A stretch of 64,000 bases of DNA from Isurus oxyrinchus (lineage: Eukaryota): the NCBI GenBank assembly GCA_026770705.1, contig JANJGN010000009.1, positions 164,052,001 through 164,116,000 on the forward strand, read 5' to 3'. This document shows positions 1,476 to 62,482 of the stretch, piece by piece. The translations under genes were made by a program, and so were the position numbers. Numbering within the stretch: position 1 is the first letter of the stretch; each line of letters starts with the position of its first letter. The notes below the pieces were generated by a model, which was not told where the DNA came from, searched no databases, and was given only the letters and a program-made list of their open reading frames with translations.

Positions 1476-1787
1476 TTTCAGGTGCATTGTGGGCAAAAAA
1501 AGAAGTAACAGGAGTTGTGGGAAGAGCGATCACAATAGAATGTCACTATGATGCACGTTACAAGTCACATATAAAATATTGGTGTTGCGGCTGGAGTCGC
1601 CAGTGTAATATTTTAGTATTGAAAAATCAGCAAAATGGAAGAATATCGATCACAGATAACAAGGCAACAGGAATATTTATTGTTACTATGGAGGATCTTC
1701 ACTCAAGAGATACAGGATGGTACAGCTGTGGTATTGACAAACCTGGCCTCGATTCAATGTTTGCTGTCTGGCTACAAATATCTTACG
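1476..1787 (+). CDS. Gene A (inhibitory CD300/pIgR/MDIR-like receptor), V-type Ig domain exon
   Basis: Acceptor ctcag| (an alternative phase-1 acceptor gives start 1482), donor TACG|gtacat, phase 1-1, 312 nt. Translates VSGALWAKKEVTGVVGRAITIECHY...KYWCCGWSRQC...DTGWYSCGID, with the CD300/pIgR C-x-Y, KYWC-x6-C extra disulfide and D-x-G-x-Y-x-C motifs. Confidence 0.93.
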
Positions 1788-2796: not shown

Positions 2797-2835
2797 AGTT
2801 GATGTTTCGAGTCCTGATGACCCTTCAACAGAACT
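2797..2835 (-). ncRNA. Minimal type-I hammerhead ribozyme motif in PLE pLTR
   Basis: Minus strand reads agtt-CTGTTGA-a-gggtc(atcag)gactc-GAAA-c-ATC-aact; stems I and II pair. Confidence 0.7.
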
Positions 2836-5232: not shown

Positions 5233-5271
5233 AGTTGATGTTTCGAGTCCTCATGACCCTTCAACAGAACT
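5233..5271 (-). ncRNA. Minimal hammerhead motif in PLE pLTR
   Basis: agtt-CTGTTGA-a-gggtc(atgag)gactc-GAAA-c-ATC-aact. Confidence 0.7.
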
Positions 5272-7151
5272 AAGTAACAATAGGAAAGGGGTGAAATATA
5301 AGCTGGTTTAAGAGGAAGGTGGGTGCGTTGTTGGGACAAGAAGCCAGTAATAGGTGGAGATAACCAAAAGATGTCACAGACAAAAGAACAAAGAGGTGTT
5401 GAAGGTGGTGATATTTTCTAAAGGAATGTGCTAATTAAGGGTAGAAAGCAGGACAAACAAGGTACAGATAGACCTAGTGGGGGTGGGGTGGGGTGAAGGA
5501 ATACTAAAAATTCTAAAAATTAGAGATTAACAGTGGATGGAAATACATTTAAAAATAATGGAAATAGTTGGGAAAAGAAAACTCTATATAAACTATTGGA
5601 AAAAACAAAAAGTGGAGGAAGAAACGGAAAGGGGATGGAGATGGCGGTTGGGGCCAGGGAACTGGAAATTGTTGATGTGACATAAGGTGTCAGAGGAATC
5701 ACGGATGTAGGTGGGAAGGGACTGGACAAGGGGAGAGCGAAGGGAGTCAAGATAATGAGAATTGAGTTCCGTGGGGCAGGAAGAGGCTGACACGATCAGT
5801 CTGCCGGGACAGTCCTGTTTGTGGATTTTGGGTAGGAGGTAGAAGCGGGCTGTCCGAGGTTGGGAGACTATCAGGTTGGAAGCTGTGGGAGGAAGATCTC
5901 CAGAGGAGATGAGGTCAGTGACAGATCTGGAAACAATGGCTTGATGTTCAGTGGTGGGGTCATGGTCCAGGGAGAGGTAGGAGGAAGTGTCTGCGAGTTG
6001 ACGCTCAGCCTCCACAAGGTAGAGGTCAGTGCGCCAGACAACAACTGCACCACCCTTGTCAGCGGGTTTGATGGCAATGTTGGGGTTAGGCCTGAGAGAA
6101 TGGAGTGCAGTATGTTCAGAGAGAGACAGGTTAGAATGGGTGAGAGGAGCAGAGAAATTGAGACGACTAATGTCACGCCGACAGTTCTCAATGAAAAGAT
6201 CAAGAGAAGGTAAGAATCCAGAGGGAGGGGTCCAGGTGGAGGGAGAAAATTGGAGGTGGGTAAAAGGATCCGTTGAATGGGGAGAGGACTCCTGCCCAAA
6301 GAAGTGAGCCCGGAGACGAAGACGGTGGAAGAAGAGTTCAGCATCATGCCGAGCCCGAAATTCATTGAGGTGAGGACGTAAGGATATGAAACTAAGTCCT
6401 TTGCTGAGCACTGAACATTCAGCATCAGAGAGGGGAAGGTCAGGGTGTATAGTGAATACCCGACCGGGGCTGGGATTGGAAGATGGGGTGGGGACAGAGG
6501 GACAGGCAGGGTTGGAGGGTCCTGGATGTGTGTTGGTATCACTGAGTTGTTGCAGCTTGCGTTCCTTAGCACTTGAGAGAAAGAGAAAAGGTTTCTTGTT
6601 GAGGCGACGGATGAGACGAAGAATAGAATGAAACTGGGGGCACGGGCAGCTTTGGAAAGGGGTACGGCGATGCTGCTGGAGGGAGAGGTCGAATGTGTTC
6701 ATATGGCAGCGCATGGCACTGAGTGTGGATCTCAGAATGCAACGGGAACAGTATTCCGAGGAATGTTGTATGTCCCAGAGATACCTGTAATCCTGGGTTG
6801 GTTCGAATCCGATGGAATTTCAGTTGAGATCCACATGGGGTAAGTCGGAGACGGAGACAGTCACTGAGAAAGGAAATATGGCTGTGAAAGCGGGTTTTAG
6901 TAAACACCTTGTCAAACACCAGGAGAGAAATGGAAAGCAATGAAGGTAAATAAGGCAAAAGAGAGATATGAAAATCCTGACGGAGAGTAGTACAAAACTT
7001 CTTGAAGGTAGGCATGTCTTGAAGAGAAGTGGCAGTCAATTAAACACGGATAAAAGCAAAAAACTGCGGATGCTGGAAATTCAAAACAAAAACAGAAACA
7101 TAAATAGCTGGAAAAACTCAGCAGGTCTGGCAGCATCAGCGGAAAGAGCAC

Positions 7152-7190
7152 AGTTGATGTTTCGAGTCCTCATGACCCATCAACAGAACT
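7152..7190 (-). ncRNA. Minimal hammerhead motif in PLE pLTR
   Basis: agtt-CTGTTGA-t-gggtc(atgag)gactc-GAAA-c-ATC-aact. Confidence 0.68.
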
Positions 7191-8502
7191 AAGTAAAAAT
7201 AGGAGAGGGGTGAAATATAAGCTGGTCTAAGGGGTGGGGGTGGGTGGTGGTGGAGGGAGAAGTTGTTGGGACAAGCAAGCAGTGATAGGAGGAGATAACC
7301 AAAAGATGTCACAGACAAATGAACAAAGAGGTGTTGAAGGTGGTGACATTATCCAAAAGATTGTGCTAATTAAGGATGGGTAGCAGGACAAGCAAGGTAC
7401 ATGGTGGCATCATGCTGCAGTTGGAGGCGGAAATGGCGGAGAATGATCCTTTAGTGCGGAGGCTGGTGGAGTGATAAGTGAGGACAAGGGAGACCTCTTC
7501 ATGTTTCTGGTAGACTTGCTGCCTTCTTCCAGTGAAGCTCAATGCAAACCGGAGGAACAGCACGTCATCTTCCGACTAGGCACTTTAGAGCCATTGGGAC
7601 TGAATATTAAGTTCAACAATTTTAGATCATAAACTCCCTCCTCCATCCCCATCCCCTTTCTGTTTCTTCCCCCTCCTTTTTCCTTTTTCCAATACTTTAT
7701 ATAGATTTTTCTTTTCCCACCTATTTCCATTATTTTTAATGTATTCCACCGATCATTTATCTATACCTTTTAAGCCCTTTAAGTCTTATTTCACCCCACC
7801 CTCCACTAGAGCTATCTGTACCTTGATTGTCCTGCTATCCATTCTTAATTAGCACATTCTTTTAGATGATGTCACCACATTCAACACCTCTTTGTTCTTT
7901 TGTCTGTGACATCTTTGGGTTATCGCCTCCTATCACCGCTTGCTTGTCCCAACAACTACCGCCGACTTCTCTCTCCACCGCCCCCCCACCCTCCGACCCA
8001 TTAGACCAGCTTATATTTCACCCCTTTCCTATTTTTACTTCGTTCTGTTGAAGGGTCATAAGGACTCTAAATGTCAACTGTGCTCTTCTCCGCCGATGCT
8101 GCCAGACCTGCTGAGTTTTTCCAGGTTGGGGAGTTCTGGGTGTGGGTTTTGAAGGAGCCAGCCTGTATCCTTTAAAGCTGCTCCCAAAATCACACAACCC
8201 AGGAACGCAGTTGGGAATCCCAGAATTAGGACACACCCGCCATTTTTAAAGGGCTCCTGAATCAACCCAAGTTGGTGAAATCCAGGCGGTCACTTTGGTC
8301 TGAAGGCTGCACAAAGCACAGGGTAGAGGCCCTGGACTGAGACACCTGCCTTTATCTTGTACAGAAAGTGTTCACATGTGAGTGACATGAACATTGCTCA
8401 TCAAAACAAGGAGCGATAGGCAGGGAGACATTCTTTGGAGTTTATTGACAATAATGAAGAGTATGTACAAGTGATTAACACCCGTGCCCAGGACGTGCAA
8501 CT

Positions 8503-11571: not shown

Positions 11572-13040
11572 CTCATTAAAATGTTGGTGAAATTGTCACT
11601 TTTCTCTGGCTAATCCCTTGACCAAAGAGGGAATTTTAATTCCCCTCCCCCATCCTGCATCGTGTTGAGGCATGATGGGATTTGCTGGATCCAGAACCTT
11701 CTCCAGCACGGCTTGTGATTCAGGAGACACACGAAAGCTTCACCCCCACCCCCAGGCAAATGTTTTATACAATTTCTCCCTCCCCATGATTGGCCAATCC
11801 TGCCCCAAGCAGCAAAGTCGCCCTGACTCCCTCCTCGCTGTTGTGCTCCGAGGCAACATTCCCACCAATTTCCAAACTTTTACCATAACGTTCCTACTTG
11901 GAAACCAGCCAAACATTCAATCAGTGTGCAAGAATTCTGGTGAGATTTTGCTGTTAAATTCGGCACAAACTCAACATTCCTGGTATTTCCAGCTTTCTCA
12001 CCACCCCACACACAGTCCCCCCTCTCGTCTCCACGTACCAGGGTTGAAGTGTTCTATCGCAGCATGCAGAGAACCAGAGCCAATCACATTTACATTCTTA
12101 TCCAAAGCTACAAAACATGTAACCGATATCTGACAACATTTTGCCCTCATTTTACCCTTTGCTTTTCTAAGATTCTCTCCAACCAATTCACATTCAACTC
12201 ACAAACAATGAAACAGCATTGGAGGCTCACTACCAGCTACGAAGAGATATTGTTCACCATGATATTCATGTTAACATACTCTCAGTATCATAGCTGCTGT
12301 TCTGATCTGGAGACCTGATATGTTCTGATATAATGGCTGAAAGGGTAACTCAGGCCTCTAAGAGGATGGAGAGATATGGGGATGGATTTTTAAAAAGTAT
12401 GGTGTCAGGATTAGAGATGGGTGGGTGTGAAATTTGACACCGCTGGTCTCCATGCCAATTTACTGTTACAATCCCAAGCCCGAAACATTTAGAAAGCAGG
12501 CGGCTTGCAGTCAAGTGGTGGGCAGCTAACTTAGGAAATAACATTTACCAAAGGGGCCAATTAAAGACCCATTCCTGCACCCACTGGGATTTCATTCAGC
12601 AATGCAAGCAGACCACATTACCCCTTCAGGATCATGGCCCGGCAGCTGCCGGGTTTTGAAACATAAAATAAACTTACCTGGACATTCCCCTTGCTGTCTC
12701 CATGCTCAGGTCAGCAACTCCCACCTCACCTGGTGAGGCCCTCTAGCATCAGGAGCCCGCCCTCTGTCCCTGATTGGATGGTGAGCCAGTTCCAGTCTTT
12801 TGATTGGCTAGAACATTGAAAATTGCAGTGGGCATGCCTAAAGAATGGTGAATGGTGTCAGGACCTGAAACTATCTCCCATGTCCAGTTCCCAAACCCAA
12901 ATTTAACATCCACCCCATAGAGTGGTAGATGTGTTGGTGAGATTCCAACATGGCAGAGCCTGGCTGAGATGAAGTGCAAAGTTTGAAGACTATTTGATTA
13001 TTAAATGTTTAGTATCTGAATGTTTCTTTCTTTCCAACAG

Positions 13041-13370
13041 AACCCGTGTCTGTTCCTGTGCTTAGATTTTCATCACCAGCAAATGTCTCATGTTCTGGGG
13101 GTTCAGTGTCCGTCTCCTGTGAGTCTGTCCAGGGATCCCTTCCCATTCAGTACACATGGTATGAAAAGACCCTGTCTGAAGATTCAAAGATCTCTGACAC
13201 CAATAAACTGGATCTACATTGTCAATCCTTCAAACAGCAACATCATCAATATTACTGCACAGCCTCGAATAATCAGGGAGTAAAATCCAGTGACACTGTC
13301 ACTGTTAACTCAACACTCATGAATGTAACAACGAAAAGCTACAGTTATGTGATACAAATTGGAAACATTG
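13041..13370 (+). CDS. Gene A, C2-type (FCRL-like) Ig domain exon
   Basis: Polypyrimidine tract + ccaacag|, donor ATTG|gtaagt, phase 1-1, 330 nt. Translates EPVSVPVL...VSCESVQGSLPIQYTWY...QYYCTASNNQGVKSS. Confidence 0.93.
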
Positions 13371-13739
13371 GTAAGTGTTACTTTCTACAAACAACGTGGC
13401 GAATGAATGTTTTAAATTCATGTCTATCCAAACTGGTCACTGTTTCAGTTCCTTCAGTTTATCTGAGAAATTGCAACTGGCCAAATTCACTCTCTCTGGT
13501 TCCTCAAACATTCTGAACAAGGTCACTAAGTTGCATTTTTCATGAAAAATGGACAGGATCAGAAAATATCCCCAAAACATGCAAAAATATTGCAGAATCT
13601 CCAATAAACCCATCGAATCAAAATAGCATTTGATTGACAGAGCTTTCATAAAGCAATTTGTCTATATCCAGCAGATGGAATTGTGAAATGCAACCTCCAA
13701 CTGTTGTGTCCTAGTTTGGGAAGGATATCACTGATAGAA

Positions 13740-14170
13740 TAGAGAAGAATTGAATTAAAATGAACCCTTGGATGAGAGGTTTTAGTCATGAGGAAAGTCT
13801 CATCACAACTGAGGTGAATGACCAGCTGGAGGACGTGGAAATTGTTAGAAATTTGGATAAGGTAACTCTAACTATTTCCACTAGTCAGTGAGTCAGCAAC
13901 AAGAGAGCATTAACTTTAAAATTATCACTAAAAGGACAAAGGGAGAAATTTGGAGAATTTTATTGATGTAAACTGTTTTTAGGACATGGAATGCCCAACT
14001 GAAATAAGTTTACAAACAAATTTAATAATAGATTTTAAAAGGGAAACAAATGTATGAGGGTGTGGGAAAAGGACAATGAAATGGAATTAAATGAGGAGAT
14101 CATTCAGAGAACCAGCATTGGAGTGATGGGCTGAATTCCCTCCCCTGTGTTGTAAAAATTCCATCATTCC
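13740..14170 (+). mobile_element. Degenerate CR1-type LINE 3' end (paralog at ~48145-48575)
   Basis: Resembles the CR1 3' ends at 38750-39070 and 60304-60770. Confidence 0.55.
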
Positions 14171-14619
14171 AGACAAAATCTCAACTTATCCTGTCTAAAA
14201 AATTAACTATTCCCTCCCCATAAAACAATGACCCTGGTTCTGAAACAAGGAGGACTTTAGCCTATTTGAATGTAGCGGTTCAATTTTCTGCAGAGTGGGT
14301 GCAGCATGTTCACCGAGAAACACCAACATGGGCACAAAACAAAGAGAATCACACTTTCACCTGAGCAGCAGGAGACAGGAATTTACATATGCAAATATAT
14401 TGACTCTGGTCATGTGGTCTCTTGCCTCAGTTGTCAGGGAAGAAGGGTGGAATTTTACACCCCCATTGCGGCAGGGACTGGGCTGTAAAATGCAGCCAGC
14501 CATTCTAAACTCCATGCACTCCAGCAGACCATAAAATCCCACTGTCACAAGGCTCAGACCAAAGGCTGTCAGCAGCAGGTAGAAATTACACCTGTAAACT
14601 GTGTTTGTACTGGAGTTGT

Positions 14620-15120
14620 CAGCAGGGACTCAGTTGCACTCTGACCTTTGATGCCAGTCTTTTGTAGTTACAAGTTCCCCTTAAGAGTTAAAATTCGGGC
14701 TGATACCATGATCCAGCACTGAGGTAGTGCTATACTGGTGGTGGTGCTGCTGTGTAGATGAGGTGTTAAACTGAGGATCCACATCCCCGTTAGGTAGATG
14801 TAAACATTTCCAGGGTATTATTCACAGAATAGGGAAGTTCTCCTGGTGTCCTTGAAGCCATTATTCCTCAACCAATACACACAAATAGGGAGCAGGAGCA
14901 GGGTATTTGGTCTTTTGAGCCTGTTAATGTCACTACAAAACAGATCATCTAGTGAATGTTTTACTGATGTTTGTGGGGCTTTGCTGTGTACGAATTAACT
15001 TCCACGTTTCTTGATATTAAAACTGTGGCTTTACTTCAAAAAAGTACTTCATAGGCTCTGAAGCACTTTGGGATATCCCAAGGTTGTGAAAGGTGATGAA
15101 TCAACACACATTGTTTCTTA
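14620..15120 (+). mobile_element. Old Deu-domain (SacSINE1-like) SINE (paralog at ~49025-49520)
   Basis: cagcactgaggtagtgct...gatgaggtgttaaactgagg core and aagcactttgggatatcc tail. Confidence 0.65.
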
Positions 15121-15695
15121 CTTTTTGAAACAAATGATTTATTAAAATACATCTGAACCAATTATCTGAGTGCAAACGGCAGGGGGGAGGGGGAGGGAGG
15201 AGCCAGTCCCAGCAGCAAGGTGGGTCATTATAATTAAATGGACAGAAAATCACTGGCAGGTTTGAGACATTCATGGTCTGTTGGTGAAGATTGTCATCTT
15301 TACTGCAAGCTCAGAAAACTGCCCCCAAAGTGCAGAAAGTGACCATTGCCAGTATTAGGATGTGACTGTTTAATGTGTTCACATGAAATTCATGTAATGA
15401 AAGTGTATCTCTGGATTGTAGTCCACCAACCTGAGCCCTTAACTGGCCCACTAGTAACTCTGTCCCACCAACTCTCAGATATAGTAAAGAAAGTGGAATT
15501 ACCAGTAAAGATAGATCACCACCAAGTATCTGCGACCACTCCACTTGTGACCAGAGAGGGGTAAATAACACAGAAATCAATTCTACCAGCCAGGCTTTTC
15601 CTCAATTAATGAGGTTCCATTTGACAATGATGCTCTTTCAGTTGACTACAAGTGAAAATGAGGTGAATCTGAATGTTATTCTTTTGCTTCCACAG

Positions 15696-15813
15696 GACCT
15701 GAGTATTTTTGTGATGTTTCTACAACAGTATCACCAACTACACATTTGACAAGTACAGATATAATTTCCACTACCAATCGATCCACACCTTCAGATCCCG
15801 AAAATGCTGAAAG
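15696..15813 (+). CDS. Gene A, Ser/Thr-rich stalk exon
   Basis: ttccacag| ... GAAAG|gtacaa, phase 1-2. Translates GPEYFCDVSTTVSPTTHLTSTDIISTTNRSTPSDPENAE. Conserved in the second copy. Confidence 0.88.
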
Positions 15814-16804
15814 GTACAATGTTCTCATGGATTGGCACTGCTTCCATATGTGAGAGATACGATTGGCCAAAGGAGTGAAAGTTGTTCATTAATTTGGAAA
15901 GTAGCTCATCAGAATGGAAATGGTGGCTGGGTTTATATCATGCTGTTGTGTTAGCTTCTTAATGAGGGTGCATTTTTCTGTTGGAAAATACAAGCAAGGA
16001 GTGAGCTTTTCCATTGTGTTGCCGCTCAGATGGTGTTTTTTGCCTTATTCACCTTGATTACTTCACCGCTAAGGTAATCTCACAGTGTGTGAGGAGTTGT
16101 ACTTGTCAAACTTACCTTGCTGCTGTCTACACTGACAGAGTACTTGTATTTGGGCTGATGAAAAGGAAGAATTAGCGTGATATATCTGCACATCCTTTGG
16201 TTTCACTAATGAGAGACATCTTGCAGCTCTGGTCCCGTTTCCATATTATAAACCTAAGCTGTTGACAATAAGTAGCAGAAATTGTAGTCCGATGTAAACA
16301 CTCAGGAATCGGGTCTTTGAAGTTACAATGGTGATAAAGAGAAAACGCCAACTAAATGTCAAACAGAAAGAGGGACAGTTGGAAATGGACAGCAGGTATG
16401 TCCGCAGCTGTGGAGAAAATAAACACGTTCATGGTTTGGGTGCAGACACTTCTTCAGAATTCTAGTCCACACGCGAAGTGAAACAGGTCCACTCACCCCA
16501 CAGATCCCAACTGAGCTGCTGAATGTTTCCAGAATCTTCTGTTTTCCATTCATATTTCTAGCACATGCAGTGCACTTACTTTTATCCAGATTATTGTCAA
16601 TGATTTAAGAAGTATAGAAAGTATCTGATTTTTATTTTAAGACAAATCTCTATGTCTGCTCTGTTGTATAAAGTTGACAACAAAGATCATCTGAATATGA
16701 AATCCATATATGTATGAAACAGTTATTACTTCCACTTTTTTCAGGGAACATCAGGTATTCTTGCATTTGGATTTTAATAATTAAAACTGACTCAGTATTA
16801 AACA

Positions 16805-17310: not shown

Positions 17311-17399
17311 TCTGATTTACATTGTGCTCGGAGTGCTGGGGGGCATTCTTGTGGTGTTTGCTGTTTCTCTACTTCTGTACCTGAGGCAAATCAACAAGG
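17311..17399 (+). CDS. Gene A, transmembrane exon (uncharged)
   Basis: tgtttcacag| ... AAGG|gtgagt, phase 2-1, compatible with neighbouring exons. Translates SLIYIVLGVLGGILVVFAVSLLLYLRQINK. Confidence 0.92.
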
Positions 17400-17539: not shown

Positions 17540-18229
17540 GGGCTGAATTTTTCTCTATTCGAGCGGGCGCACACCAGATCCAAACGAGAGTAAAATAGTG
17601 CGCGATGAGGTCAGACGAGCGTCTGGACATTATCGTACACTCTGGCGATATTTCTCTCTGCAGGCACGTGCGAGAGGCGGCAGCACGCCCGCTGACAATG
17701 AAGCAACCTATTAAGGCCCTTAATCAATTAATAGAATTGAATTTTTTGCTGCCTGTCCAACTGTTCGGTTGGTTTGTGGTCAAATCGGCCAATCAGCCTT
17801 TGCACTTTTGGCGAAACCTCATCAATGGGCGGGATGGGGTTTTGACCAGTGATTAAAGCCAAAACTTTGAGAACTCGTATTTAAATGGCCATGGTCATGT
17901 GACAAAGTCACATGAGGGGACATGTTTTCATTAGTTTTCAATTCTTTATTTCAATTGTTCAAAATCTTCAGCTCCCTGAGGCAGCTCTGAGACTCAGGGA
18001 GCTTTCACTGTGAGCACGCGCACACATGCACAAACTTGCACGCTTGCCCTCCTCCTGCCCTCACGCCAGCAGTGCTGAGCGTTGCAGCACGTATTATGCA
18101 CTGACTGGCCATTAATTGTCCAGCCCGTGTGAAATCGATGTTGGGGCCTGATCGGGGGGCAGTGGTCGGCTTCACAACCACTCCTGAGCCCACCTGCCAT
18201 GCCCATCCGACAAGGGCAAAATTCTGCCC
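17540..18229. mobile_element. Harbinger-type MITE
   Basis: TIRs GGGCTGAATTTT / AAAATTCTGCCC with 3-bp TSD ATG on both sides. Confidence 0.8.
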
Positions 18230-19489: not shown

Positions 19490-19542
19490 GTACAAACTGC
19501 ATTCCAAGTCAGCGGAGAGACAAGACTCTCCATTATAATCAG
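19490..19542 (+). CDS. Gene A, first cytoplasmic exon
   Basis: atttttcag| ... CAG|gtaagg, phase 1-0, which exactly bridges the TM exon and the last exon. Translates GTNCIPSQRRDKTLHYNQ. Confidence 0.8.
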
Positions 19543-32599: not shown

Positions 32600-33358
32600 A
32601 TCAAGTGGCACTCACTTAGCAATAACCAGGTGATTGACGCTTAGTTTGGGTTCCGCCAGGATCATTCAGCTCTGACCTCAAATATGGACAAAAGAGATGA
32701 ACTCCAGAGGTAAAGCGAGTGTGACTGCCCTTGTCATCAAGGCAGCATTTGACCAATCATGGCATCATGAAGCCCCAGCAAAACTGAAGTCATTGGGGAT
32801 CAGGAGTAAAACTCTCCAATGGTTGGAGTCATACCGAGCACAAAGGAAGATGTTTGTGGTTGTTGGAGGTCAATCATCTCAGTTCCAGAGCATCACTGCT
32901 GGAGTTTCTCAGGATAGTGTCCTAGGCCCAACCACCTTTAGCTGCTTCACAATGACCTACCTTCTGCAATAAGGTCAGATGTGGGGATGTTCGCTGATGA
33001 TTGCACATTCAGCACCATTCACGACATCTCAGGTACTGAAGCAGTCCATGTCCAAATGCAGCAAGACCTGGACAATATCCAGGCTTGGGCTAACAAGTGA
33101 AAAGTAACATTCGCACCACACAAGTGCCAGGCAATGGCCATCCCCAACAAGAGAGAATCTAACCATTGCCCCTTGACATTTAATAGCATTACCATCACTG
33201 AATCCCCCACTATCAGTCTGGGGGGGTTACTAGAAACTGAACTGGACTAGCCATATAAATACTGTGGCTGTAAGAGCAGATCAAAGACAGGGAATCCTGC
33301 AGCGAGTAACTCACCTGACTCCCCCAAAGCCTGTCCACCATCTACAAGGCACAAGTCA
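32600..33358 (+). mobile_element. CR1/L2-group LINE RT fragment
   Basis: IKAAFDQSWH...AGVSQDSVLGPTTFSCF; gttcgctgatgat (FADD). Confidence 0.8.
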
Positions 33359-33943
33359 AGGAGGCTGAGGTGGAGGTGGTGACTGAGAAGGTTGAGGTGG
33401 AGGCAGTGACTGAGGAGGTTGAGGTGGAGGCAGTGACTGAGGAGGCTGAGGTGGAAGCAGTGACTGAGGAGGTTGAGGTGGAGGCAGCGACTGAGGAGGC
33501 TGAGGTGGAGGCAGTGACTGAGGAGGCTGAGGTGGAGGCAGTGACTGAGGAGGTTGAGGTGGAGATGGTGACTGAGGAGGCTGTGGAGGAGGTGGTGACT
33601 GAGGAGGCTGAGGTGGAGGCAGTGACTGAGGAGGTTGAGGTGGAGGCAGTGGCTGAGGAGGTTCAGGTGGAGGCAGTGACTGAGGAGGTTGAGGTGGAGG
33701 CAGTGGCTGAGGAGGTTCAGGTGGAGGCAGTGACTGAGGAGGCTGAGGAGGAGGTGGTGACTGAGGAGGCTGAGGAGGAGGTGGTGACTGAGGAGGCTGA
33801 GGTGGAGGCAGTGACTGAGGAGGCTCAGGTGGAGGCAGTGACTGAGGAGGCTGAGGTGGAGGTGGTGACTGAGGAGGCTGAGGAGGAGGCAGTGACTGAG
33901 GAGGCTCAGGTGGAGGCAGTGACTGAGGAGGCTGAGTTGGAGA
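33359..33943 (+). repeat. 27-bp minisatellite (GAGGAGGYTGAGGTGGAGGCAGTGACT)n
   Basis: About 21 tandem units; open frame EEAEVEAVT. Confidence 0.95.
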
Positions 33944-34569
33944 GTAAGAGAGAATGGGAGAGGTGATGAGAGAGAGTGGGAGAGAGAGAGAGAAAGAGAG
34001 ACCAAGATGGAAAGGTGGGAGAGCGATAGAGGGCGGGAAACTGGAGACAGAGAGAGAGACAGTGGGAAAGGGGGAGAAAGAGAATGGGAACACGGTGGGC
34101 AGAGAGAGAGAGAGTGGGAAAGGGTCAGGGTGGGAAGGCCAGGCAGGGGGATCAGGTCAGGGACACAGGCCCATGCAAGCACATTCCAGGCAGGCCTGAG
34201 GGGGAGGGGATGTGTCCAGCCTGGTATGAGGATTGGGTGGTCCTGACTCCCTCCAGGGGAAGGGGCTGTAGAAGAGAATTGAAAGTGAGAGGGGGGTGAG
34301 CCGCAGACTGCTCCGTTGGTCTCAGCAGCACTTTCACCCCACTCCTCCAGTGAGGGGACTCGCACGTTTTATGGCAGAGGCAGCAACAGCCTCAGAGAAG
34401 GCGGCAACTGAGGAGGACACGGCAATGGCTGAAGTGGAGGCACAGAAATGGAGGTGGAGGCTGCGGGTCGGGCAATATGGCAGAGGAGGAGTTGGCAAGG
34501 GCAGCGGAAGCAGAGGTGGTGATGGAGTTGGCAACAGCAGTGGAGTTGGCTGAGGAAGAGGCAAGAGTG

Positions 34570-35105
34570 GAGGAGGCTGAGGTGGAGGAAGTAGCTGAGG
34601 AGGCTGAGGTGGAGGCAGTGACTGAGGAGGCTGAGGTGGAGGCAGTGGCTGAGGAGTTTGAGGTGGAGGCAATGGCTGAGGAGGCTGAGTTGGAGTCAGT
34701 GACTGAGGAGGTTGAGGTGGAGGTGGTGACTGAGGAGGTTGAGCTGGAGTCATTGGCTGAGGAGGCTGAGGTGGAGGTGGTGACTGAGGAGGTTGAGGTG
34801 GAGGCGGTGACTGAGGAGGTTGAGGTGGAGTCAGTGGCTGAGGAGGCTGAGGTGGAGGTGGTGACTGAGGAGGTTGAGGTGGCGTCAGTGACTGAGGAGG
34901 TTGAGGTGGAGGCAGTGACTGAGGAGGTTGAGGTGGAGGCAGTGACTGAGGAGGTTGAGGTGGAGGCAGTGACTGAGGAGGTTGAGGTGGAGGCAGTGAC
35001 TGAGGAGGTTGAGGAGGAGGCAGTGACTGAGGAGGCTGAGGTGGAGGCAGTGACTGAGGAGGCTGAGGTGGAGGCAGTGACTGAGGAGGCTGAGGTGGAG
35101 GTGGT
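34570..35105 (+). repeat. 27-bp minisatellite inside the 305-aa acidic ORF 34477-35394
   Basis: About 20 units of the same repeat. Confidence 0.95.
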
Positions 35106-35959
35106 TGCCGAGGCGATGGAGGTAGTGAATGTCGGGGTGGAGGAGGAGACATCAGCAGCGACAGCAGCAGAGACAGTGACTGAGGCTGAGGAGGGGGAGG
35201 CAGCGGCTGTGACAGTGACAGAGGGAGAAGCAGCGAAGGCGGCAGCAGCAAAGGCTGAGGCCACAGTGAGGGAGGCTGTGGAGAGGGAGGTGGAGGTGGG
35301 GCAGAGGCAGCGAGGAGACGGTACGAGACCAGGAGCAGCAACAAAACCTGCCTTGTGGTTTGTGAGGCTCAGGGCAATGGCGACTATGAGTTGATATCTT
35401 CCATGTGCCATGTGTGTGTCTCCGAGTCAGCGCACCGGACCACACTGCTTCTGCCCGATTAGGGCGCTTCAGTGGAGTCCGACACCAGTCCAGTGCCACC
35501 CAGCTCCCATTCCCGAGGACAGGTGATGGAACCTGCCCAGTGCCAGGATGAGCTGCTTGGTAAGATCGGGAGGTGGGAAGTAGAGAAGGCAGCCGACCAG
35601 GAAAAGCTGGAGGATATCTCCAGGATTACTGACTGTCTCCAAGAAGAAACTCTTGTAGCCTTCAGGCAGGGTATATATATGTTTATATAGCTGCAATTTA
35701 AAGTTACCTGCCACATCCCTTTTAACACTTTCTAATGCAGCATCGCTCTGATCAGAATCAGATTTATTGGGGTTGTGCAAATGTCTCCCCAGCCTCTGAT
35801 ATAACATTAAAAAGCTGCTTTTTCCTTTCCAGTTGCAGTAAGAGGACTGTCCCAGCCTCTCAATGTGACAGGGCAGCCCAGGACTATGTCTCTCAGGAGC
35901 CTCAGCCTTTACAATTGTTCTACAGGTCTGAACTTTTCTCAGCTTGTTTGGACAAGAAC

Positions 35960-40262: not shown

Positions 40263-40302
40263 ATGATGTGGATTTTGATTCTCCTCATTAGTTCTCTGCC
40301 CG
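40263..40302 (+). CDS. Gene B, signal peptide (leader) exon
   Basis: ATG ATG TGG ATT TTG ATT CTC CTC ATT AGT TCT CTG CCC G|gtgagt. MMWILILLISSLP joins in phase 1 to VSG-ALW of the V exon, giving a classic signal peptide. Confidence 0.9.
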
Positions 40303-42161: not shown

Positions 42162-42476
42162 TTTCAGGTGCATTGTGGGCAAAAGAGAGAGTAACAGGAG
42201 TTGTGGGAAGAGCGATCACAATAGAATGTCACTATGATGCACAGTGGTACAAGTCACATATAAAATATTGGTGTCGCGGCTGGACTCGCCAGTGTAATGT
42301 TGTAGCATCGACAAATTGGCGAAATGGAAGAATATCGGTCACAGATAACAAGTCACAAGGATTATTTATTGTTACTATGGAGGATCTTCACTCAGGAGAT
42401 ACAGGATGGTACAGCTGTGCTATTGAAGTAACTGGCCACGATCCAATGTTTAATGTAAAGCTACAAATATCTTACG
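42162..42476 (+). CDS. Gene B (activating-type CD300/pIgR/MDIR-like receptor), V-type Ig domain exon
   Basis: Same splice sites as gene A, 315 nt. Translates ...IECHYDAQWYKSHIKYWCRGWTRQC...GDTGWYSCAIE. Confidence 0.93.
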
Positions 42477-45455: not shown

Positions 45456-47444
45456 GAATGTTATTAAGTTAACCCTCACTGTCAGATAATGTAAACAGTA
45501 TGAAAAGTGTGGATGAGAAACCCTTAGAAACTTCCTTGCTGGATGGAAACAAATGCTGGAGAGAATGGAAATTTCTAAATGAAATGAGTGGATGCCTGAT
45601 TGTTTTAGAGAATGAAATGCAGGTACAACAAATTTTTTAGGGATCTGAGGAGAGGGCTATCTTGCAATATGATGAAGTATAGAATATTGAGATTCTTAAT
45701 TCAATTTGTTTCACACTTTTTGGTCACCATATTAACTGAAAATTTTATTTAAATGAGAGAAGGTCATCATCTAATCGTTTATTAATTGTGTTTAATTGTA
45801 TGCAGTGGTGGCATTAATTGGTGATTCACTTGTGCACCTATAAACAGATGCAGACTGAAACTGCGGGTGGTGGATTTGATTAGATTCACACAGTAAACAG
45901 CACTTTAAAACAGTTCCACAAGTCTTAACCTATCTAACCTCAGAGCTAATCTTTCTCTTTTCCGTTCAGCAACTAACACTGTAGATTTAAAAAGCTATAG
46001 AAGTGCAATAATTTTACCACACAGTGCTTTCACATTGGGGTGTCCACTGACAGAAACTGGGTCTTCAGGTCTGGGCCTTGTACACACTGTCTCCTGGGAA
46101 TTCTGACCTGCTACCCTGCTGTCTTCAGGGAGATCTGGCCAACCATCCTGCTGTGTTCTGGGAGATCTAAGCAGCTACCCCCTCACATAGGCTTCAGTAT
46201 TCCCTTAAATGTGTTTCTTCTCTTTCATCTCTCTTTGTAGTACCCAGTCTGTTCAGAAATGCTTTTATCCCAGGATTGATTAAATCAATCTTTACTTTAA
46301 TTCTTAGACTTGTAAAAACAAACGTACCCTATCTTTATGTCACTTCATGACACCTTTTTACAACCTGCATATATCCCCCTTTGAACTAAAACAACTTAAT
46401 TCAAACTATTCCTGTTATTGCTTCATGTACAAATCTGTTGAAGTTCTTTTTTGTTCATTAACATATCAAAACCACTTCTTACTGTTGACTTTTGACCCTA
46501 TCCACTGATGAGGCAGTCCACGTCATGGAACCATAACCTTAAATCTGGAGATAGGCTCGTCAGGGATGTCAGGAAGCACTTCTTCACGCAAAGTATAGTG
46601 GAAATCAGGAACACTCTCCTCAAAAAAGCTCTTTAGTTCAATTGAAAATTTCAAAACTGATTGACAGATTTTATCTGGTAGCAATATTCGGGTTATGGGA
46701 CCCAGGTAGGTAAATGGACAGAAGATACTGGTCAGTTGGGATTTAATTGAATTGTGGAACAGGCTGAAGGGGCTGCATGTCCGAATCCCTTTTCCATGTT
46801 CTGGAGCCCCAGTTAATTTTTCAGTGGTCTGGGCCTTGTGAGTAACAATGTGCTGTGAAACAAGCTCACAAACAGTTAGCATTTCAAAGAGACACTTTCC
46901 AATCACCAGGCAAACTGTGACCTGTGTTGTTTCAGAGTACAGTTTGTGACAGTGAAAGCAGTGAAGGCCTGCCAAACCTCACTAAAAATGTTGGTGAAAG
47001 TGTCACTTTTCTCTGGCTAATCCCTTGACCAAAGAGGGAATTTTAATTCCCCTCCCCCATCCTGCATCGGGTTGAAGCATGATGGGATTTGCTGGATCCA
47101 GAACCTTCTCCAGCACAGCTTGTGATCCAGGAGACACACGAAAGCTTCACCCCCACCCCCAGGCAAATGTTTTATACAATTTCTCCCTCCCCATGATTGG
47201 CCAATCCTGCCCCAAGCAGCAAAGTCACCCTGACTCCCTCCTCGCTGCTGTGCTCCGAGGACAAATTCCCACCAATTTCTCCCATGTCCAGTTCCCAAAC
47301 CCAAATTTAACATCCACCCCATAGAGTGGTAGATGTGTTGGTGAGATTCCAACATGGCAGAGCCTGGCTGAGATGAAGTGCAAAGTTTGAAGACTATTTG
47401 ATTATTAAATGTTCAGTATCTGAATGTTTCTTTCTTTCCAACAG

Positions 47445-47774
47445 AACCCGTGTCTGTTCCTGTGCTTAGATTTTCATCACCGCTAAATGTCTCATGTTCT
47501 GGGGGTTCAGTGTCCGTCTCCTGTGAGTCTGTCCAGGGATCCCTTCCCATTCAGTACACATGGTATGAGAAGACCCTGCCTGAAGATTCAAAGATCTCTG
47601 ACACCAATAAACTGGATCTACATTGTCAATCCTTCAAACAGCAACATCATCAATATTACTGCACAGCCTCAAATAATCAGGGAGAAAAATCCAGTGACAC
47701 TGTCACTGTTAACTTAACACTCATGAATGTAACAACGAAAAGCTGCAGTTATGTGATACAAATTGGAAACATTG
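47445..47774 (+). CDS. Gene B, C2-type (FCRL-like) Ig domain exon
   Basis: ccaacag| ... ATTG|gtaagt, 330 nt, 5 amino-acid differences from gene A. Confidence 0.93.
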
Positions 47775-50098
47775 GTAAGTGTTACTTTCTACAAACAATG
47801 TGGCGAATGAATGTCTTAAATTCATGTCTATCGAAACTGGTCACTGTTTCAGTTCCTTCAGTCAATCTGAGAAATTGCAACTGGCCAAATTCACTCTCTC
47901 TGGTTCCTCAAACATTCTGAACAAGGTCACTAAGTTGCATTTTTCATGAAAAATGGACAGGATCAGAAAATATCCCCAAAACATGCAAAAATATTGCAGA
48001 ATCTCCAACAAACCCATCGAATCAAAATAGCATTTGATTGACAGAGCTTTCATAAAGCAATTTGTCTATTTCCAGCAGATGGAATTGTGAAATGCAACCT
48101 CCAACTGTTGTGTCCTAGTTTGGGAAGGATATCACTGATAGAATAGAGAAGAATTGAATTAAAATGAACCCTTGGATGAGAGGTTTTAGTCATGAGGAAA
48201 GTATCATCACAACTGAGGTGAATGACCAGCTGGAGGACGTGGAAATTGTTAGAAATTTGGATAAGGTAACTCTAACTATTTCCACTAGTCAGTGAGTCAG
48301 CAACAAGAGAGCATTAACTTTAAAATTATCACTAAAAGGACAAAGGGAGAAATTTGGAGAATTTTATTGATGCAAACTGTTTTTAGGACATGGAATGCCC
48401 AACTGAAATAAGTTTACAAACAAATTTAATAATAGATTTTAAAAGGGAAACAAATGTATGAGGGTGTGGGAAAAGGACAATGAAATGGAATTAAATGAGG
48501 AGATCATTCAGAGAACCAGCATTGGAGCGATGGGCTGAATTCCCTCCCCTGTGTTGTAAAAATTCCATCATTCCGGTCAATATCTCAAATTATCCTGTAT
48601 AAAAAATTTGTTCCCTCCCCATAAAACAATGACCCTGGTTCTGACATAAGGAGGGCTTTAGCCTATTTGAATGTAGCGGTTCAATTTTCTGCAGAGTGGG
48701 TGCAGCATGTTCACCGAGAAACACCAACATGGGCACAAAACAAAGAGAATCACATTTTCACCTGAGCAGCAGGAGACAGGAATTTACATATGCAAATATA
48801 TTGACTCTGGTCATGTGGTCTCTTGCCTCAGTTGTCAGGGAAGAAGGGTGGAATTTTACACCCCCATTGCGCCAGGGACTGGGCTGTAAAATGCAGCCAG
48901 CCATTCTAAACTCCATGCACTCCAGCAGGACCATAAAATCCCACTGTCACAAGGCTCTGAGCAAAGGCTGTCAGCAGCAGGTAGAAATTACCCCTGTAAA
49001 CTGTGTTTGTACTGGAGTTGTCAGCAGGGACTCAGTTCCACTCTGACCTTTGATGCCAGTCTTTTGTAGTTACAAGTTCCCCTTAAGAATTAAAATTCAG
49101 GCTGATACCACTGTCCAGCACTGAGGTAGTGCTATACTGGTGGTGGTGCTGCTGTGTAGATGAGGTGTTAAACTGAGGATCCACATCCCCCTTAGGTAGA
49201 TGTAAACATTTCCAGGGTATTATTCACAGAATAGGGAAGTTCTCCTGGTGTCCTTGAAGCCTTTATTCCTCAACCAATACACACAAATTGGGAGCAGGAG
49301 CAGGCCACTTGGTCTTTTGAGCCTGTTAATGTCACTACAAAACAGATCATCTAGTGAATGTTTTACTGATGTTTGTGGGGCTTTATTGTGTAGGAATGAA
49401 CTTCCACGTTTCCCAACATTAAAACTTTGGCTTTACTTCAAAAAAGTACTTCATAGGCTCTGAAGCACTTTGGAATATCCCAAGGTTGTGAAAGGTGATG
49501 AATCAGCACAACTTGTTTCTTACTTTTTGAAACAAACCATTTATTAAAATACATCTGAACCAATTATCTGAGTGCAAACTGCAGGGGGGGGAGGGGGAGG
49601 GAGGAGCCAGTCCCAGCAGCAAGGTGGTCATTATAATTAAATGGTCCGAAAATCACTGGCAGGTTTGAGACATTCATGGTCAGTGGGTGAAGATTCTCAT
49701 CTTTACTGCAAGCTCAGAAAACTGCCCCCAAAGTGCAGAAAGTGACCATTGCCAGTATTAGGATGTGACTGTTTAATGTGTTCACATGAAATTCATGTCA
49801 AGAATGTGTATCTCTGGATTGCAGTCCACCAACTTGAGCCCTTACCAGGCCCACTTCTAACTCTGTCCCACCAACTCTCAGATATAGGAAAGAATGTGGA
49901 ATTACCAGTAAAGATAGATCACCATCAGGTATCAGCAACCTCTCCACTTGTGACCAGAGAGGGGTAAATTACACAGAAATCAATTCTACCTGCCAGGCTT
50001 TTCCTCAATTAATGAGGTTCCATTTGACAATGATGCTCTCTCAGTTGACTACAAGTGAAAATGAGGTGAATCTGAATGTTATTCCCTTGTGTCAACAG

Positions 50099-50216
50099 GA
50101 CCTGAGTATTGTTGTGAAGCTTGTACAAGAGTATCACCAACTACATATTTGACAAGTACAGATATAATTTCCACTACCAATCGAGCCACAACTTCAGATC
50201 CCGAAAATGCTGAAAG
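50099..50216 (+). CDS. Gene B, stalk exon (Cys-enriched)
   Basis: gtcaacag| ... GAAAG|gtacaa. Translates GPEYCCEACTRVSPTTYLTSTDIISTTNRATTSDPENAE. Confidence 0.88.
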
Positions 50217-51560
50217 GTACAATGTTCTCATGGATTGGCATTGCTTCCATATGTGAGAGATACAATTGGCCAAAGGAGTGAAAGTTGTTCATTAATTGTA
50301 AAGTAGCTCATCAGAATGGAAATGGTGGCTGGGTTTATATCATGCTGTTGTGTTAGCTTCTTAATGAGGCTGCATTTTTCTGTTGGAAAATACAAGCAAG
50401 GAGTGAGCTTTTCCATTGTGTTGCCGCTCAGATGGTGTTTTTTGCCTTATTCACCTTGATTACTTCACCGCTAAGGTAACCTCACAGTGTGTGAGGAGTT
50501 GTACTTGTCAAACTTACCTTGCTGCTGTCTACACTGACAGAGTGGTTGTATTTGGGCTGATGAAAAGGAAGAATTAGCGTGATATATCTGCACATCCCTT
50601 GGTTTCACTAATGAGAGACATCTTGCAACTCTGGTCCCGTTTCCATATGATTAGCCTGAGCTGTCGACAATAAGTAGCAGAAATTGTAGTCCGATGTAAA
50701 CACTCAGGAACCGGGTCTTTGAAGTTACAATGGTGATAAAGAGAAAACGCCAACTAAATGTCAAACAGAAAGAGGGACAGTTGGAAATGGGCAGCAGGTA
50801 TGTCCGCAGCTGTGGAGAAAATAAACACGTTCATGGTTTGGGTGCAGACACTTCTTCAGAATTCTAGTCCACACACGAAGCGAAGCAGGTCCACTCACCC
50901 CACAGATCCCAACTGAGCTGCTGAATGTTTCCAGAATCTTCTGTTTTCCATTCATATTTCTAGCACATGCAGTGCACTTACTTTTATCCAGATTATTGTC
51001 AATGATTTAAAAAGTATTGAAAGTCTAGGGTCTGAATTTTCCGCTCGGCGGGGGTGGGGGTGGGGTAGAGCGGGAGCGAGCACGGGCAGCTGTGGACCCC
51101 ATCGCCATCCACCATCGGGTTTTTGACGCCATTTTGCGCGGGCGGCCAATTTAGGCCATCCCAGCGTATTTCCCGGCTCCCGAGGATAGCGGCAGTGGGC
51201 GAGAAGCGGGGGGTGTGCACAGACAACCGGGTCCAATGGTGACCCAGCGGCCTGTTTAAATGAAGGCCTGGCAGCCTGTTCCAGCTGCTCACAATGGCCA
51301 GTGCAAAGAATTTTCACTTACAATTCCGCTTAGCCTTACAGTTAGACATTATGGACATGCTAAAGAAATTTGCTTCGTTTGATTTTTATCTAATGATCAT
51401 GAAGTTGATAAGTAGAACTTTAGTTGATTCTTTCAGCTAAAGTCCCTTGTCTACTTTATGTTGCTGCAAAAAATTACAGTGTAAAGCGGAGAGTCATGTT
51501 TCAAAAATGAAACAGTCTCATTTCATTTAAATGGTTTGATATTTCTTCTCTTTTGCTCAG

Positions 51561-51651
51561 TTACATTATCTGGGATGTGATACGCTGGGTGCTCTTTACT
51601 CTCCTGGTGATTTGTGCTGTTTCGGGCACATGGTGTACGAGAAAATCTAAG
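51561..51651 (+). CDS. Gene B, transmembrane exon with charged residues (Arg, Asp); the downstream terminal exon is unresolved
   Basis: tcttttgctcag| phase 2, matching the stalk donor; donor AAG|gtgaga. Translates SYIIWDVIRWVLFTLLVICAVSGTWCTRKSK. Confidence 0.87.
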
Positions 51652-54900: not shown

Positions 54901-56593
54901 CTTCAATTGTCCCTGTTACTATGATCCCATGTAACCCATCCATAATAGAAACATTCCATAGTTTAATCTAATCTTCCAAAATAATCGATACAAGAAAAGG
55001 AAGCGAGGAAATGGAGGCAGAATCTAACAGAGCACCAGGGATGATTGTTTTTCAACAAGAACACAAGGAGACGTAAAATTATACAGACTGCAACAGGAGA
55101 CTGAGATACAGACCCAAGAGAATTGTTACTGGAAGCAGCAATTGCACTGTATAAAATATATTTAATAAAGTAGCCACAGCAATCAATTTCTACCCAAAAC
55201 GCCAGTTGCAGGGGAACATTAGTTACCCATGAGAAAATGGTGTTACATCTCTTCAAGAGGGGCACAACTGATAACTTTTCCCAGCACACATGCAATGGGT
55301 GAGGAGTGTGATGTTGCCACAGCTCCAGCTCATCACAAGCTTTGCCTCGATTTGTCGGCATAGCCAGAATTCTGTTCACATGTAAAATAATGCATCGTTC
55401 TCAGTCTCAATTAATCTGGTGATTTTCAGTTCCAGACACTCAACGAATCAGATCCTCACAGCTTGACCTAAGAGGGAAAATGAAGATTCCGGGGTTACAT
55501 CTACATTGATGGAATTTTTCATCCTGACAAAATATTCATTATTCGTCGAGCTTTGAATTTCTTTTAATAATTCTACAGAATAAAAATCGATTTTCTCATC
55601 AAATAATTTTGACCATTAAATTAGTGGAGCAATCAAAAAGCAAAATGATGGCTGCGAACTTCAAATTGTATATCTACATCCTGACAATAATTTCTCTGTT
55701 TGCTGCCTTAGTGTCTACACAACTTTATTTCTTGTTTTAAGACTATCAAATTCTTTAAGAAATAAGCAACTTGAAAAGTTCATTTATTGGAAACCAATCG
55801 CTTCATATTATGATGCAGCTGAGCTAAATGCTGAGCGGTTCAAATCCAGGAGGGAAACTTGAACCAACTGTCATAACTAACTGTTGCAAATTGTATGATG
55901 AAGGTGCAGGCTTTAAATTCAATAGTAATAAGACGACTGAGTCTCAACAGGTTTTTATAAAACTAAATTAAACATTTATTAATACAAGAAAGATTGTGAG
56001 CACATGCATATGTTGACAAAATTACTACTATAATGTCTACAAAAATCCCCTAATTAATCTGGCTCCAAGTTATACCTCCGTTAAGGCATCAGTAAAACAC
56101 ATGGATTTAAACAGACCCTGGGCAAAGCTCACTCTGGACAGTCACATTCAAATTGAGTTTCTTTCAGCTCTGGGTCTTTGCAGACAGCGGCTTGAGGCTT
56201 ACGGACTGGAGGCTTTAGTTCTTAGAATCGCTCTCCTTTTTACCAACAGCCTTCTAATCCTTTTTACATATTTTTCTCTTTGAATGCAATTTTCATTCTA
56301 CCACTATTTCATTTGAAATTTTAACACTTCAAATAATAAGACACTTTCATGCGACCCACTTTATTAGTAATCCTTGGGAAAAATAAACAAACACACAGTT
56401 TCTGAGCTTCACCTGGTTAGGTGTAATATTTCACACCATCTCTGAACCCAAGGTAGGGGAGTTAGTTTAAAGAAAAAATGCAAATTGCCCCCATATTTAC
56501 CTAAGTAACATTTCAAACCTACTCCTTTTCTATACATCAAAGCCTCTAGACAAGCTGGCTTTAATCCAATTAGGACACACACACACACACAGA

Positions 56594-60770: not shown

Positions 60771-61159
60771 CTCTACTGGATTCTACTGGACATCAGAAAT
60801 CCAGTAGGGATTCCAGTTGCTTCAGCTAAATTGAGCTGGAACCACAGCACCTGTTCCCAATTGGACTAGGAGTCAGAGAGGGACAATGCAAGAACTGGGG
60901 CATAAACTCTCATTCAATGGGTGGTGCAGTCTGAGGAGGACCTGAGAAGGCTTCGAGAGAAAGGTGGGAAAGTGGGAGAAAGGGAGACAGAGTCAGAAGC
61001 ATCCGTTACATTTTCCCCAGAGTTGGTCACTCTGGCAGGATCAGCATCAGCCTCAGGGAAGGAGGCAACAGTGGAGGAGACGACAGTGGCGGAGGTGGAG
61101 GTGGCGATAGCAGCGGAACTGAAGGTTGCAGTGAAGTCAGCAACAACAGTGGAGAAGGA

Positions 61160-61552
61160 TGAGGTGGAGCTGGTGACTGAGGAGGCTGAGGTGGAGGCAG
61201 TGACTGAGGAGGCTGAGGTGGACATGGTGACTGAGGAGGCTGAGGTGGAGGCAGTGACTGAGGAGGCTGAGGTGGACGTGGTGACTGAGGAGGCTGAGGT
61301 GGAGGCAGTGACTGAGGAGGCTGAGGAAGAGGCAGTGACTGAGGAGGCTCAGGTGGAGGTGGTGGCTGAGGAGACTGAGGTGGAGGTGATGACTGAGGAG
61401 GCTGAGGCGGAGGCAGTGACTGAGGAGGTTGAGGTAGAGGTGGTGACTGAGGAGGTTGAGGTGGAGGCAGTGACTGATGAGGTTGAGGTGGAGGCAGTGA
61501 CTGAGGAGGTTGAGGTGGAGGCAGTGACTGAGGAGGCTGAGGTGGAGGTGGT
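61160..61552 (+). repeat. 27-bp minisatellite inside the acidic ORF 60921-61841
   Basis: About 14 units. The flank 61550-62343 is near-identical to 35103-35895. Confidence 0.95.
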
Positions 61553-62482
61553 TGCCGAGGCGATGGAGGTAGTGAATGTGGGGGTGGAGGAGGAGACATC
61601 AGCAGCGACAGCAGCAGAGACAGTGACTGAGGCTGAGGAGGGGGAGGCAGCGGCTGTGACAGTGACAGAGGGAGAAGCAGCGAAGGCGGCAGCAGCAAAG
61701 GCTGAGGCCACAGTGAGGGAGGCTGTGGAGAGGGAGCTGGAGGTAGGGCAGAGGCAGCGAGGAGACGGTACGAGACCAGGAGCAGCAACAAAACCTGCCT
61801 TGTGGTTTGAGAGGCTCAGGGCAATGGCGACTGTGAGTTGATATCTTCCATGTGCCATGTGTGTGTCTCCGAGTCAGCGCACCGGACCACACTGCTTCTG
61901 CCCGATTAGGGCGCTTCAGTGGAGTCCGACACCAGTCCAGTGCCACCCAGCTCCCATTCCCGAGGACAGGTGATGGAACCTGCCCAGTGCCAGGATGAGC
62001 TGCTTGGTAAGATCGGGAGGTGGGAAGTAGAGAAGGCAGCCGACCAGGAAAAGCTGGAGGATATCTCCAGGATTAATGACTGTCTCCAAGAAGAAACTCT
62101 TGTAGCCTTCAGGCAGGGTATATATATGTTTATATAGCTGCAATTTAAAGTTACCTGCCACATCCCTTTTAACACTTTCTAATGCAGCATCGCTCTGATC
62201 AGAATCAGATTTATTGGGGTTGTGCAAATGTCTCCCCAGCCTCTGATATAACAATAAAAAGCTGCTTTTTCCTTTCCAGTTGCAGTAAGAGGAATGTCCC
62301 AGCCTCTCAATGTGACAGGACAGCCCAGGACTATGTCTCTCAGTGCAACACCCAGGAACACACACAGTGCAGCCCCCACATTGATTGTTCCAGTTAGGGA
62401 GGGAAAAGCGTGCATGTGGAGTCAGTGTACAATTGGGAAGATATTGATTCTCACAACATTTCCACGGCTTTAAATCAAATTG

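Follow-up and report, generated by a model that had tools for sequence, protein, structure and literature searches.

We observed that 14 presumed activating receptor genes of the shark Isurus oxyrinchus carry an identical double junction in the intron between their stalk and transmembrane (TM) exons. A single old gene fusion, inherited by all 14 genes, probably left this junction: a Harbinger insertion would have been followed by a microhomology-guided join. Repeated swapping is also real; it takes place upstream of the first junction point (J1), with switch points scattered over several introns. The window referred to below is the whole 64,000-nt stretch of DNA that was analysed.

The receptor cluster and its two genes in the window

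The V exon encodes a V-set domain (Pfam), and among solved structures its best matches are pIgR and CD300/CMRF35. All 69 longer V homologues were elasmobranch, the nearest being from Carcharodon (90%) and Cetorhinus (86%). They included MDIR3 and MDIR5 of skate, to which the V domain is 54-58% identical. The cluster combines a modular V + C2 ectodomain with both activating and inhibitory forms, and judged by sequence it is a pIgR/CD300-like, MDIR-type paired-receptor cluster. It is large and apparently undescribed in a shark, as no published account of the cluster or of the junction was found in a literature search that covered a minority of the subscription journals. In known receptor families a TM arginine recruits FcR-gamma, and ITIM-type tails inhibit through SHP recruitment. 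By analogy, the shark receptors would activate through an FcR-gamma-type adaptor at the TM arginine and inhibit through recruitment of SHP. Several database models (P0001, P0002, P0009 and others) fuse neighbouring genes into proteins of 900-2000 aa, and the family is therefore likely to be mis-annotated in sharks and rays.

Genome searches gave 17 matches to the activating TM, 15 to the inhibitory TM and 32 to V, every one of them on contig C9 at 163.13-164.28 Mb. We took 1.256 Mb including the window for mapping, and mapped 32 loci over a span of 1.15 Mb: five old, diverged ones (g01-g05) and 27 young ones, with 14 activating (_A) and 13 inhibitory (_I) genes. Canonical splice sites and open frames were found in 14/14 young activating and 12/13 young inhibitory genes; g09_I has no leader and V exons. 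An inverted block (C9 163399000-163468000) holds g07_I, g08_A and g09_I, the last of these beside an activating last-exon remnant on the opposite strand. The old activating loci g02_A and g05_A (C9 163228000-163364000) have a V exon and are without a C2 or recognisable stalk; the TM exon of g05_A has a 1-nt insertion and looks broken. An internal duplication has given g16_A (C9 163695126-163712442) and g28_A (164121172-164138822) a V-C2-C2 arrangement with open frames, in which the first stalk is truncated and the second is inhibitory-type.

The window contains g26_I and g27_A, with the following exons.

1482..1787, + strand: g26_I (inhibitory) Ig V exon (Pfam V-set, 3.5e-9); preceded by a leader exon ~430 nt outside the window
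13041..13370, + strand: g26_I second Ig exon, C2-type
15696..15813, + strand: g26_I stalk exon, S/T-rich, phase 1 to 2
17311..17399, + strand: g26_I TM exon, uncharged
19490..19542, + strand: g26_I short cytoplasmic exon, matching Carcharodon model P0009
20173..20484, + strand: g26_I last exon, with four ITIM/ITSM-like tyrosine motifs (VYANV, ITYAAV, IYSGV, IYATV)
40263..40302, + strand: g27_A (activating) leader exon
42168..42476, + strand: g27_A Ig V exon, pIgR/CD300/MDIR-like
47445..47774, + strand: g27_A second Ig exon, C2-type
50099..50216, + strand: g27_A stalk exon, inhibitory-lineage, with two extra cysteines (YCCEAC)
51561..51651, + strand: g27_A TM exon, phase 2 to 0, WDVIRW, with the Arg near the outer end
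55436..55471, + strand: g27_A predicted short last exon (TLNESDPHSLT-stop), tyrosine-free and resembling other elasmobranch activating tails

A 20-nt candidate cytoplasmic exon of g26_I near 19014 was superseded by 19490-19542, which fits P0009. The two genes are not each other's nearest partners, as their V exons are ~34 substitutions apart.

The double junction and its origin

The preliminary description of the window had placed the divergence of the two copies at 16622 and 51024, with unrelated sequence beyond. Both points were confirmed. When the window was compared with itself by BLAST, g26_I and g27_A showed blocks matching at 92-98%, beginning at the window start and ending at 16622/51024. 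The final block (12874-16622 against 47278-51024) matches at 96.6% over 3752 nt; the post-junction introns, TM exons and tails gave no match in this search. The motif that ends the homology begins at 50991 in g27_A and at 16589 in g26_I, where the earlier figure was off by one. The break lies in the intron between the 118-nt stalk exon (phase 1 to 2) and the phase-2 TM exons (17311 and 51561). Both TM exons begin in phase 2, and so the phase-2 stalk donor does suit either of them, as had been proposed.

Collinear homology across the TM regions was looked for and not found. A profile of the activating cassette searched against the inhibitory genes with nhmmer gave a best E of 2.6, that is, no residual homology past the junction. 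In pairwise tests against shuffled sequence past the junction, 5/6 pairs were unremarkable, and the result of the remaining pair (4/300) was not repeated in others. The TM exons of g26_I and g27_A show only a faint likeness (11/2000 shuffles). The nhmmer and shuffle tests ruled out a fossil activating TM exon, or leftover intron homology, in the inhibitory gene past the junction.

It had also been claimed that only the promoter side and the ectodomain are shared. The break stands, but the exclusivity does not, since ~5.5-8 kb upstream of each leader is shared as well. As sharing restarts 5.5-8 kb before the next leader, the class cassettes are bubbles (~10 kb activating, ~17 kb inhibitory) between shared flanks. 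A GC-rich tandem repeat (27/54-nt period; window 33350-35200 and 61090-61660) is located where sharing restarts after both cassettes, and its length differs from unit to unit. The features around the junction are as follows.

16589..16626, + strand: point in the inhibitory copy at which sharing ends; collinearity with old g01_I continues across and past it
51026..51028, + strand: J1, a likely 3-nt target site flush with the left end of the transposon (TAG in 6/14, TAT in 8/14 activating genes)
51029..51302, + strand: ~275-nt 5' stub of a ~3.8-4.6 kb PIF/Harbinger transposon, 76-82% to the best dispersed copies
51293..51306, + strand: J2, a 10-nt microhomology, AATGGCCAGT, found both inside the transposon and in the ancestral activating intron
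51307..51560, + strand: end of the ancestral activating intron in g27_A, 81% to g04_A and 68% to g02_A
61152..62343, + strand: distal end of the activating-specific cassette (~10 kb), where sharing restarts (95.6% to 34705-35896), beside the tandem repeat

The GC-rich piece that follows the break, with GGGTCTGAATTTTCC located at 51028, had been read as the end of a Harbinger-type MITE. It is of the Harbinger type, but it is the 5' stub of a multi-kilobase element and not a MITE. A MITE is a short complete element with both terminal inverted repeats (TIRs) and a target duplication on each side. Here only the left TIR is present, and the family copies extend for kilobases. The repeat family gave 3726 candidates, and the best copies were drawn from 40 that were scored. 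All 20 copies fetched cease matching at 51302-51306 and then run on as transposon. Ten longer copies are elements of ~3.8-4.6 kb, with clear right ends in 3/10; the TIRs of copy L153 are flanked by CAG at either end, and L155 has ATG/GTG. A DDE_Tnp_4 domain was found in 2/2 ORFs scanned (E 1.2e-36 and 2.8e-32), and transposase motifs in 4/10 long copies; one degraded family ORF scanned for a Myb/SANT-like domain gave no Pfam match. With their short TIR, 3-nt target duplication and DDE_Tnp_4, the family copies are like PIF/Harbinger elements, from which the stub differs in having no right end. Since only its first ~275 nt are left, the stub is not mobile. The surroundings of the young genes showed neither the rest of the same transposon copy nor a reciprocal product, and the 23 matches to the family in the cluster are the 14 stubs plus nine in its old part. 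A separate Harbinger-type element of ~680 nt follows the inhibitory TM exon (window 17540-18216); it is complete, with TIRs and an ATG duplication, and would fit the definition of a MITE.

We then asked where the junction occurs. J1 and J2 are identical in 14/14 young activating genes, in which the diversity of the activating cassette is 1-2%. The stub is in the same position in 14/17 activating loci and is absent from the old g02, g04 and g05, and 13/13 young inhibitory genes cease matching at the same point. Other paralogs thus do break in the same intron, which the preliminary description had left as a check. Because all 14 share the double junction and the three old activating loci are without it, these data indicate one old fusion and not a repeated breakpoint.

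The nature of J2 is consistent with a microhomology-guided join. Against this, its exact 10-mer occurs in only 7/20 family copies, and a near version in the other 13/20. A match of at least 10 nt was seen in 15/1,357,759 random position pairs, a post hoc estimate from one copy and one intron.

The old loci point to the parents of the fusion. The alignment of the old inhibitory g01_I continues past J1 into the intron of the inhibitory genes (74%), and the old g04_A and g02_A align with the young activating intron only from J2 onward. The short stalk of g04_A resembles activating forms of Mustelus, and the long stalks of the young activating genes resemble inhibitory stalks. From these stalks, we infer that the fusion placed a front end of the inhibitory type before an older activating cassette. 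The alignments and stalks together support the earlier proposal that an inhibitory-type ectodomain and stalk came to sit on a pre-existing activating TM cassette. The activating WxVxRW TM was found in skates, rays and sharks, and the activating cassette is therefore ancient.

The opposite direction, in which activating genes supplied the ectodomain of the inhibitory ones and the scar records a change in the inhibitory lineage, is highly improbable. Some recent swaps did go this way, since g32_I, g19_I and g24_I bear V types that are otherwise activating. However, it is the inhibitory intron that keeps its collinearity with g01_I across J1, and it is the activating genes that hold the foreign DNA; moreover, the young activating stalks are inhibitory-type, and no long stalk was seen in the three old activating loci.

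On the favoured reading, the first step would have been a Harbinger insertion between the stalk and TM exons of an inhibitory gene. A microhomology-guided deletion or template switch (MMEJ or MMBIR) would then have linked the transposon with intron sequence of an older activating gene. The triplet at J1, before the left TIR, bears on the order of these two steps; it matches g01_I only and is not kept as a target triplet by the modern inhibitory genes. This absence, and the flush contact of J1 with the terminal repeat, as in transposase-made joins, would suit a reversed order. In that case the transposon was first in the activating intron and lost its right part at J2, and a transposase-driven or one-ended event then joined its left end to the inhibitory intron, with J1 as the fusion point and an identical end product. 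We consider this unlikely, as a flush end is also expected from plain insertion and the triplet fits the outgroup g01_I. The stub is in 0/3 old activating genes, and the reversed order requires one extra rare step.

Insertion first, followed by fusion, is thus the order that we prefer, and related species give some indication of the age of the fusion. A contig of a related organism (organism B) spans J1 (50995-51207), with just 33 nt on the left side; none among the organism B contigs listed spans J2. A predicted gene model of Cetorhinus joins a long stalk to the same TM and the same downstream stretch, and this stretch is in 14/14 young and 0/3 old activating genes. From the model and the J1 contig, the fusion likely predates the split from the Cetorhinus lineage. 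The NKLDD "exon" of the Cetorhinus model (window ~53626) has repeat-like surroundings, and we took it as a marker of orthology and not as the true last exon. In g06_I (C9 ~163383140-163383180), a 26-nt inversion starts within 3 nt of the J1 position; it could be a footprint of repair or excision.

Exchange between the classes upstream of the junction

The trees of young genes had 26 or 27 rows, with g01-g05 left out and g09_I absent where the part is missing. Class labels changed six times on the tree of the leader intron, five times on that of the V exon, six times on that of C2, and twice on that of the stalk-J1 region. AU tests rejected activating monophyly for the leader intron (p 3.4e-5), V (3.1e-4) and C2 (1.3e-4), and did not reject it for the stalk-J1 region (p 0.31). 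Fixed differences between the classes were found at 0/651 variable sites. The mean r2 with class fell from 0.30-0.36 within 1.8 kb of J1 to 0.06-0.15 at greater distances. Identical V exons occur across the classes (g10/18/21_I = g22/29/31_A; g19/24_I = g12/25_A). As the preliminary description had suggested checking, the ectodomain trees are in conflict with the TM class. Switch points were located in the V-C2 intron (g24_I/g25_A), the C2-stalk intron (g32_I/g17_A) and the stalk-J1 intron (g16_A, g28_A). Later swaps of binding domains between the classes therefore likely happened upstream of the junction. A 5.6 kb nest of LINE/SINE fragments in the V-C2 intron (window 2650-8290) marks one V lineage; it is present in seven inhibitory and three activating genes and is a useful swap marker.

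Across species, 55/69 matches were screened and 29 dropped (no classable TM or adjacent C2), and the V+C2 tree had 28 rows, that is, 26 database proteins and the two window genes. It groups by lineage, with ten class changes, and activating monophyly was rejected (p 1.2e-6).

The stalk is the part in which the classes differ most (6.2%, versus 2.5-3.1% in the intron closer to the junction). The stalk exons of g27_A and g26_I differ by eight non-synonymous and no synonymous changes, and the extra cysteines of YCCEAC are present in 12/14 activating stalks. Perhaps the two added cysteines serve dimerisation. Among the 16 distinct V exons, mean pN was 0.074 and mean pS 0.037 (uncorrected, and from pairs that are not independent).

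The preliminary description had seen in the stalk-TM intron site a means of repeatedly generating paired receptors, and these data do not bear it out. The 14 activating genes have one inherited junction, and the exchanges are in the V-C2, C2-stalk and stalk-junction introns. It is very unlikely that this site, beside the end of the element, is a hotspot for repeated grafting of ectodomains onto activating cassettes. The five to six label changes on the ectodomain trees would agree with a hotspot, as would the switches of g16_A and g28_A in the stalk-J1 intron, the inversion of g06_I at the J1 position, and the loss of similarity between the old g04_A and the inhibitory genes, which likewise falls in the stalk-TM intron. 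However, J1 and J2 are the same in every young activating gene, with the low cassette diversity given above. The switch points are scattered, and association with class peaks near J1 instead of dipping; the similarity loss of g04_A may be mere decay.

Over 20-27 kb, five pairs of genes reach 99.6-99.9% identity. In run X21, from another individual and read at ~0.38-fold coverage, the shared intron was covered to a depth of ~3-6 and the region near the activating TM to 1-2; this is below the prediction from 27 and 14 copies, but filters drop reads and the dips are unreliable. Given the near-identical pairs and the low depth, copy counts may be inflated or may vary between individuals, and a mosaic seen only once, such as g32_I, could result from a mis-join. 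These same two observations are what would speak for the junction or the mosaics being assembly artefacts of the tandem array. We give this next to no credence, since the junction is seen in 14 diverged copies, in the organism B contig and, at the protein level, in the Cetorhinus model, and the main mosaic type is in three distinct copies (g22, g29, g31).

Comparison with known systems and implications

Following the single fusion, the fused activating gene would have been amplified by tandem duplication. The ~20 kb block that is shared would still be undergoing unequal crossover and/or gene conversion. Exchange would stop at the non-homologous cassettes (~10 kb and ~17 kb), which would preserve each signalling module, and V domains under diversifying selection would pass between the modules.

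The class of mechanism (merohomogenization; KIR fusions at transposons) is already known; the base-level scar of origin and the cluster are new. Merohomogenization has been described for the paired receptors KLRC, Ly49 and PIR, in ligand-binding exons only and with the stalk spared (Fossum et al. 2011, PMC3210942). As in those systems, old opposed signalling modules carry ligand-binding domains that are homogenised within lineages, and the stalk is homogenised to a lesser degree: near-identical V domains are found on opposite modules in the shark cluster, and the modules are older than the ectodomain lineages. In contrast to them, the origin of the shark activating lineage is legible per base (transposon plus microhomology), and exchange involves ~27 genes rather than two.

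Fusion breakpoints of KIR genes have been placed within intragenic transposable elements (PMC7516082). The shark cluster is likewise a head-to-tail array in which unequal recombination would shuffle binding and signalling domains. However, the KIR elements are Alu/LINE in all genes, whereas the shark DNA-transposon stub is confined to one class and lies where homology ends, without being its source.

In SIGLEC11/SIGLEC16 and CD300A/CD300C (gene conversion in the latter, PMC12447643), a partially duplicated 5' block is kept similar by gene conversion, as may be the case here, and the shark V domain is of the CD300 type. The 3' boundary of SIGLEC11/16 is described without a defining motif (PMC5701461), whereas that of the shark genes is a defined double junction. 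CD300C has a TM glutamate, whereas the shark activating genes have a conserved TM arginine.

Also related in kind are the MDIRs, described as CD300/pIgR-like (PMC3031540). Those of the clearnose skate have V + C2 modules, the activating WxVxRW TM and ITIM-tailed forms, like the shark genes. The shark cluster differs in its simple V-C2 architecture and large recent expansion, and the genomic junctions of MDIR genes are apparently undescribed. Domain shuffling on two TM classes has also been reported in Xenopus (PMC2413239).

A broader reading of these results is possible, and we put it forward tentatively. One fusion may have reset the activating lineage onto an inhibitory ectodomain, leading to a germline plug-and-play system that still reassorts positively selected V domains among living sharks, from activating to inhibitory outputs and back, in which ~20 kb interchangeable front ends lie between two non-recombining signalling cassettes. 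The stalk would then have co-adapted, with its cysteines selected.

Arguments on the origins of activating partners, and on the escape of signalling modules from homogenisation, usually rely on trees. In the present case the founding fusion can be read per base, both parental gene types are nearby, and 27 paralogs locate the later exchanges. This makes it possible to test whether activating genes are born repeatedly or whether one old cassette is repeatedly re-fitted, and it is the latter that fits the shark cluster.
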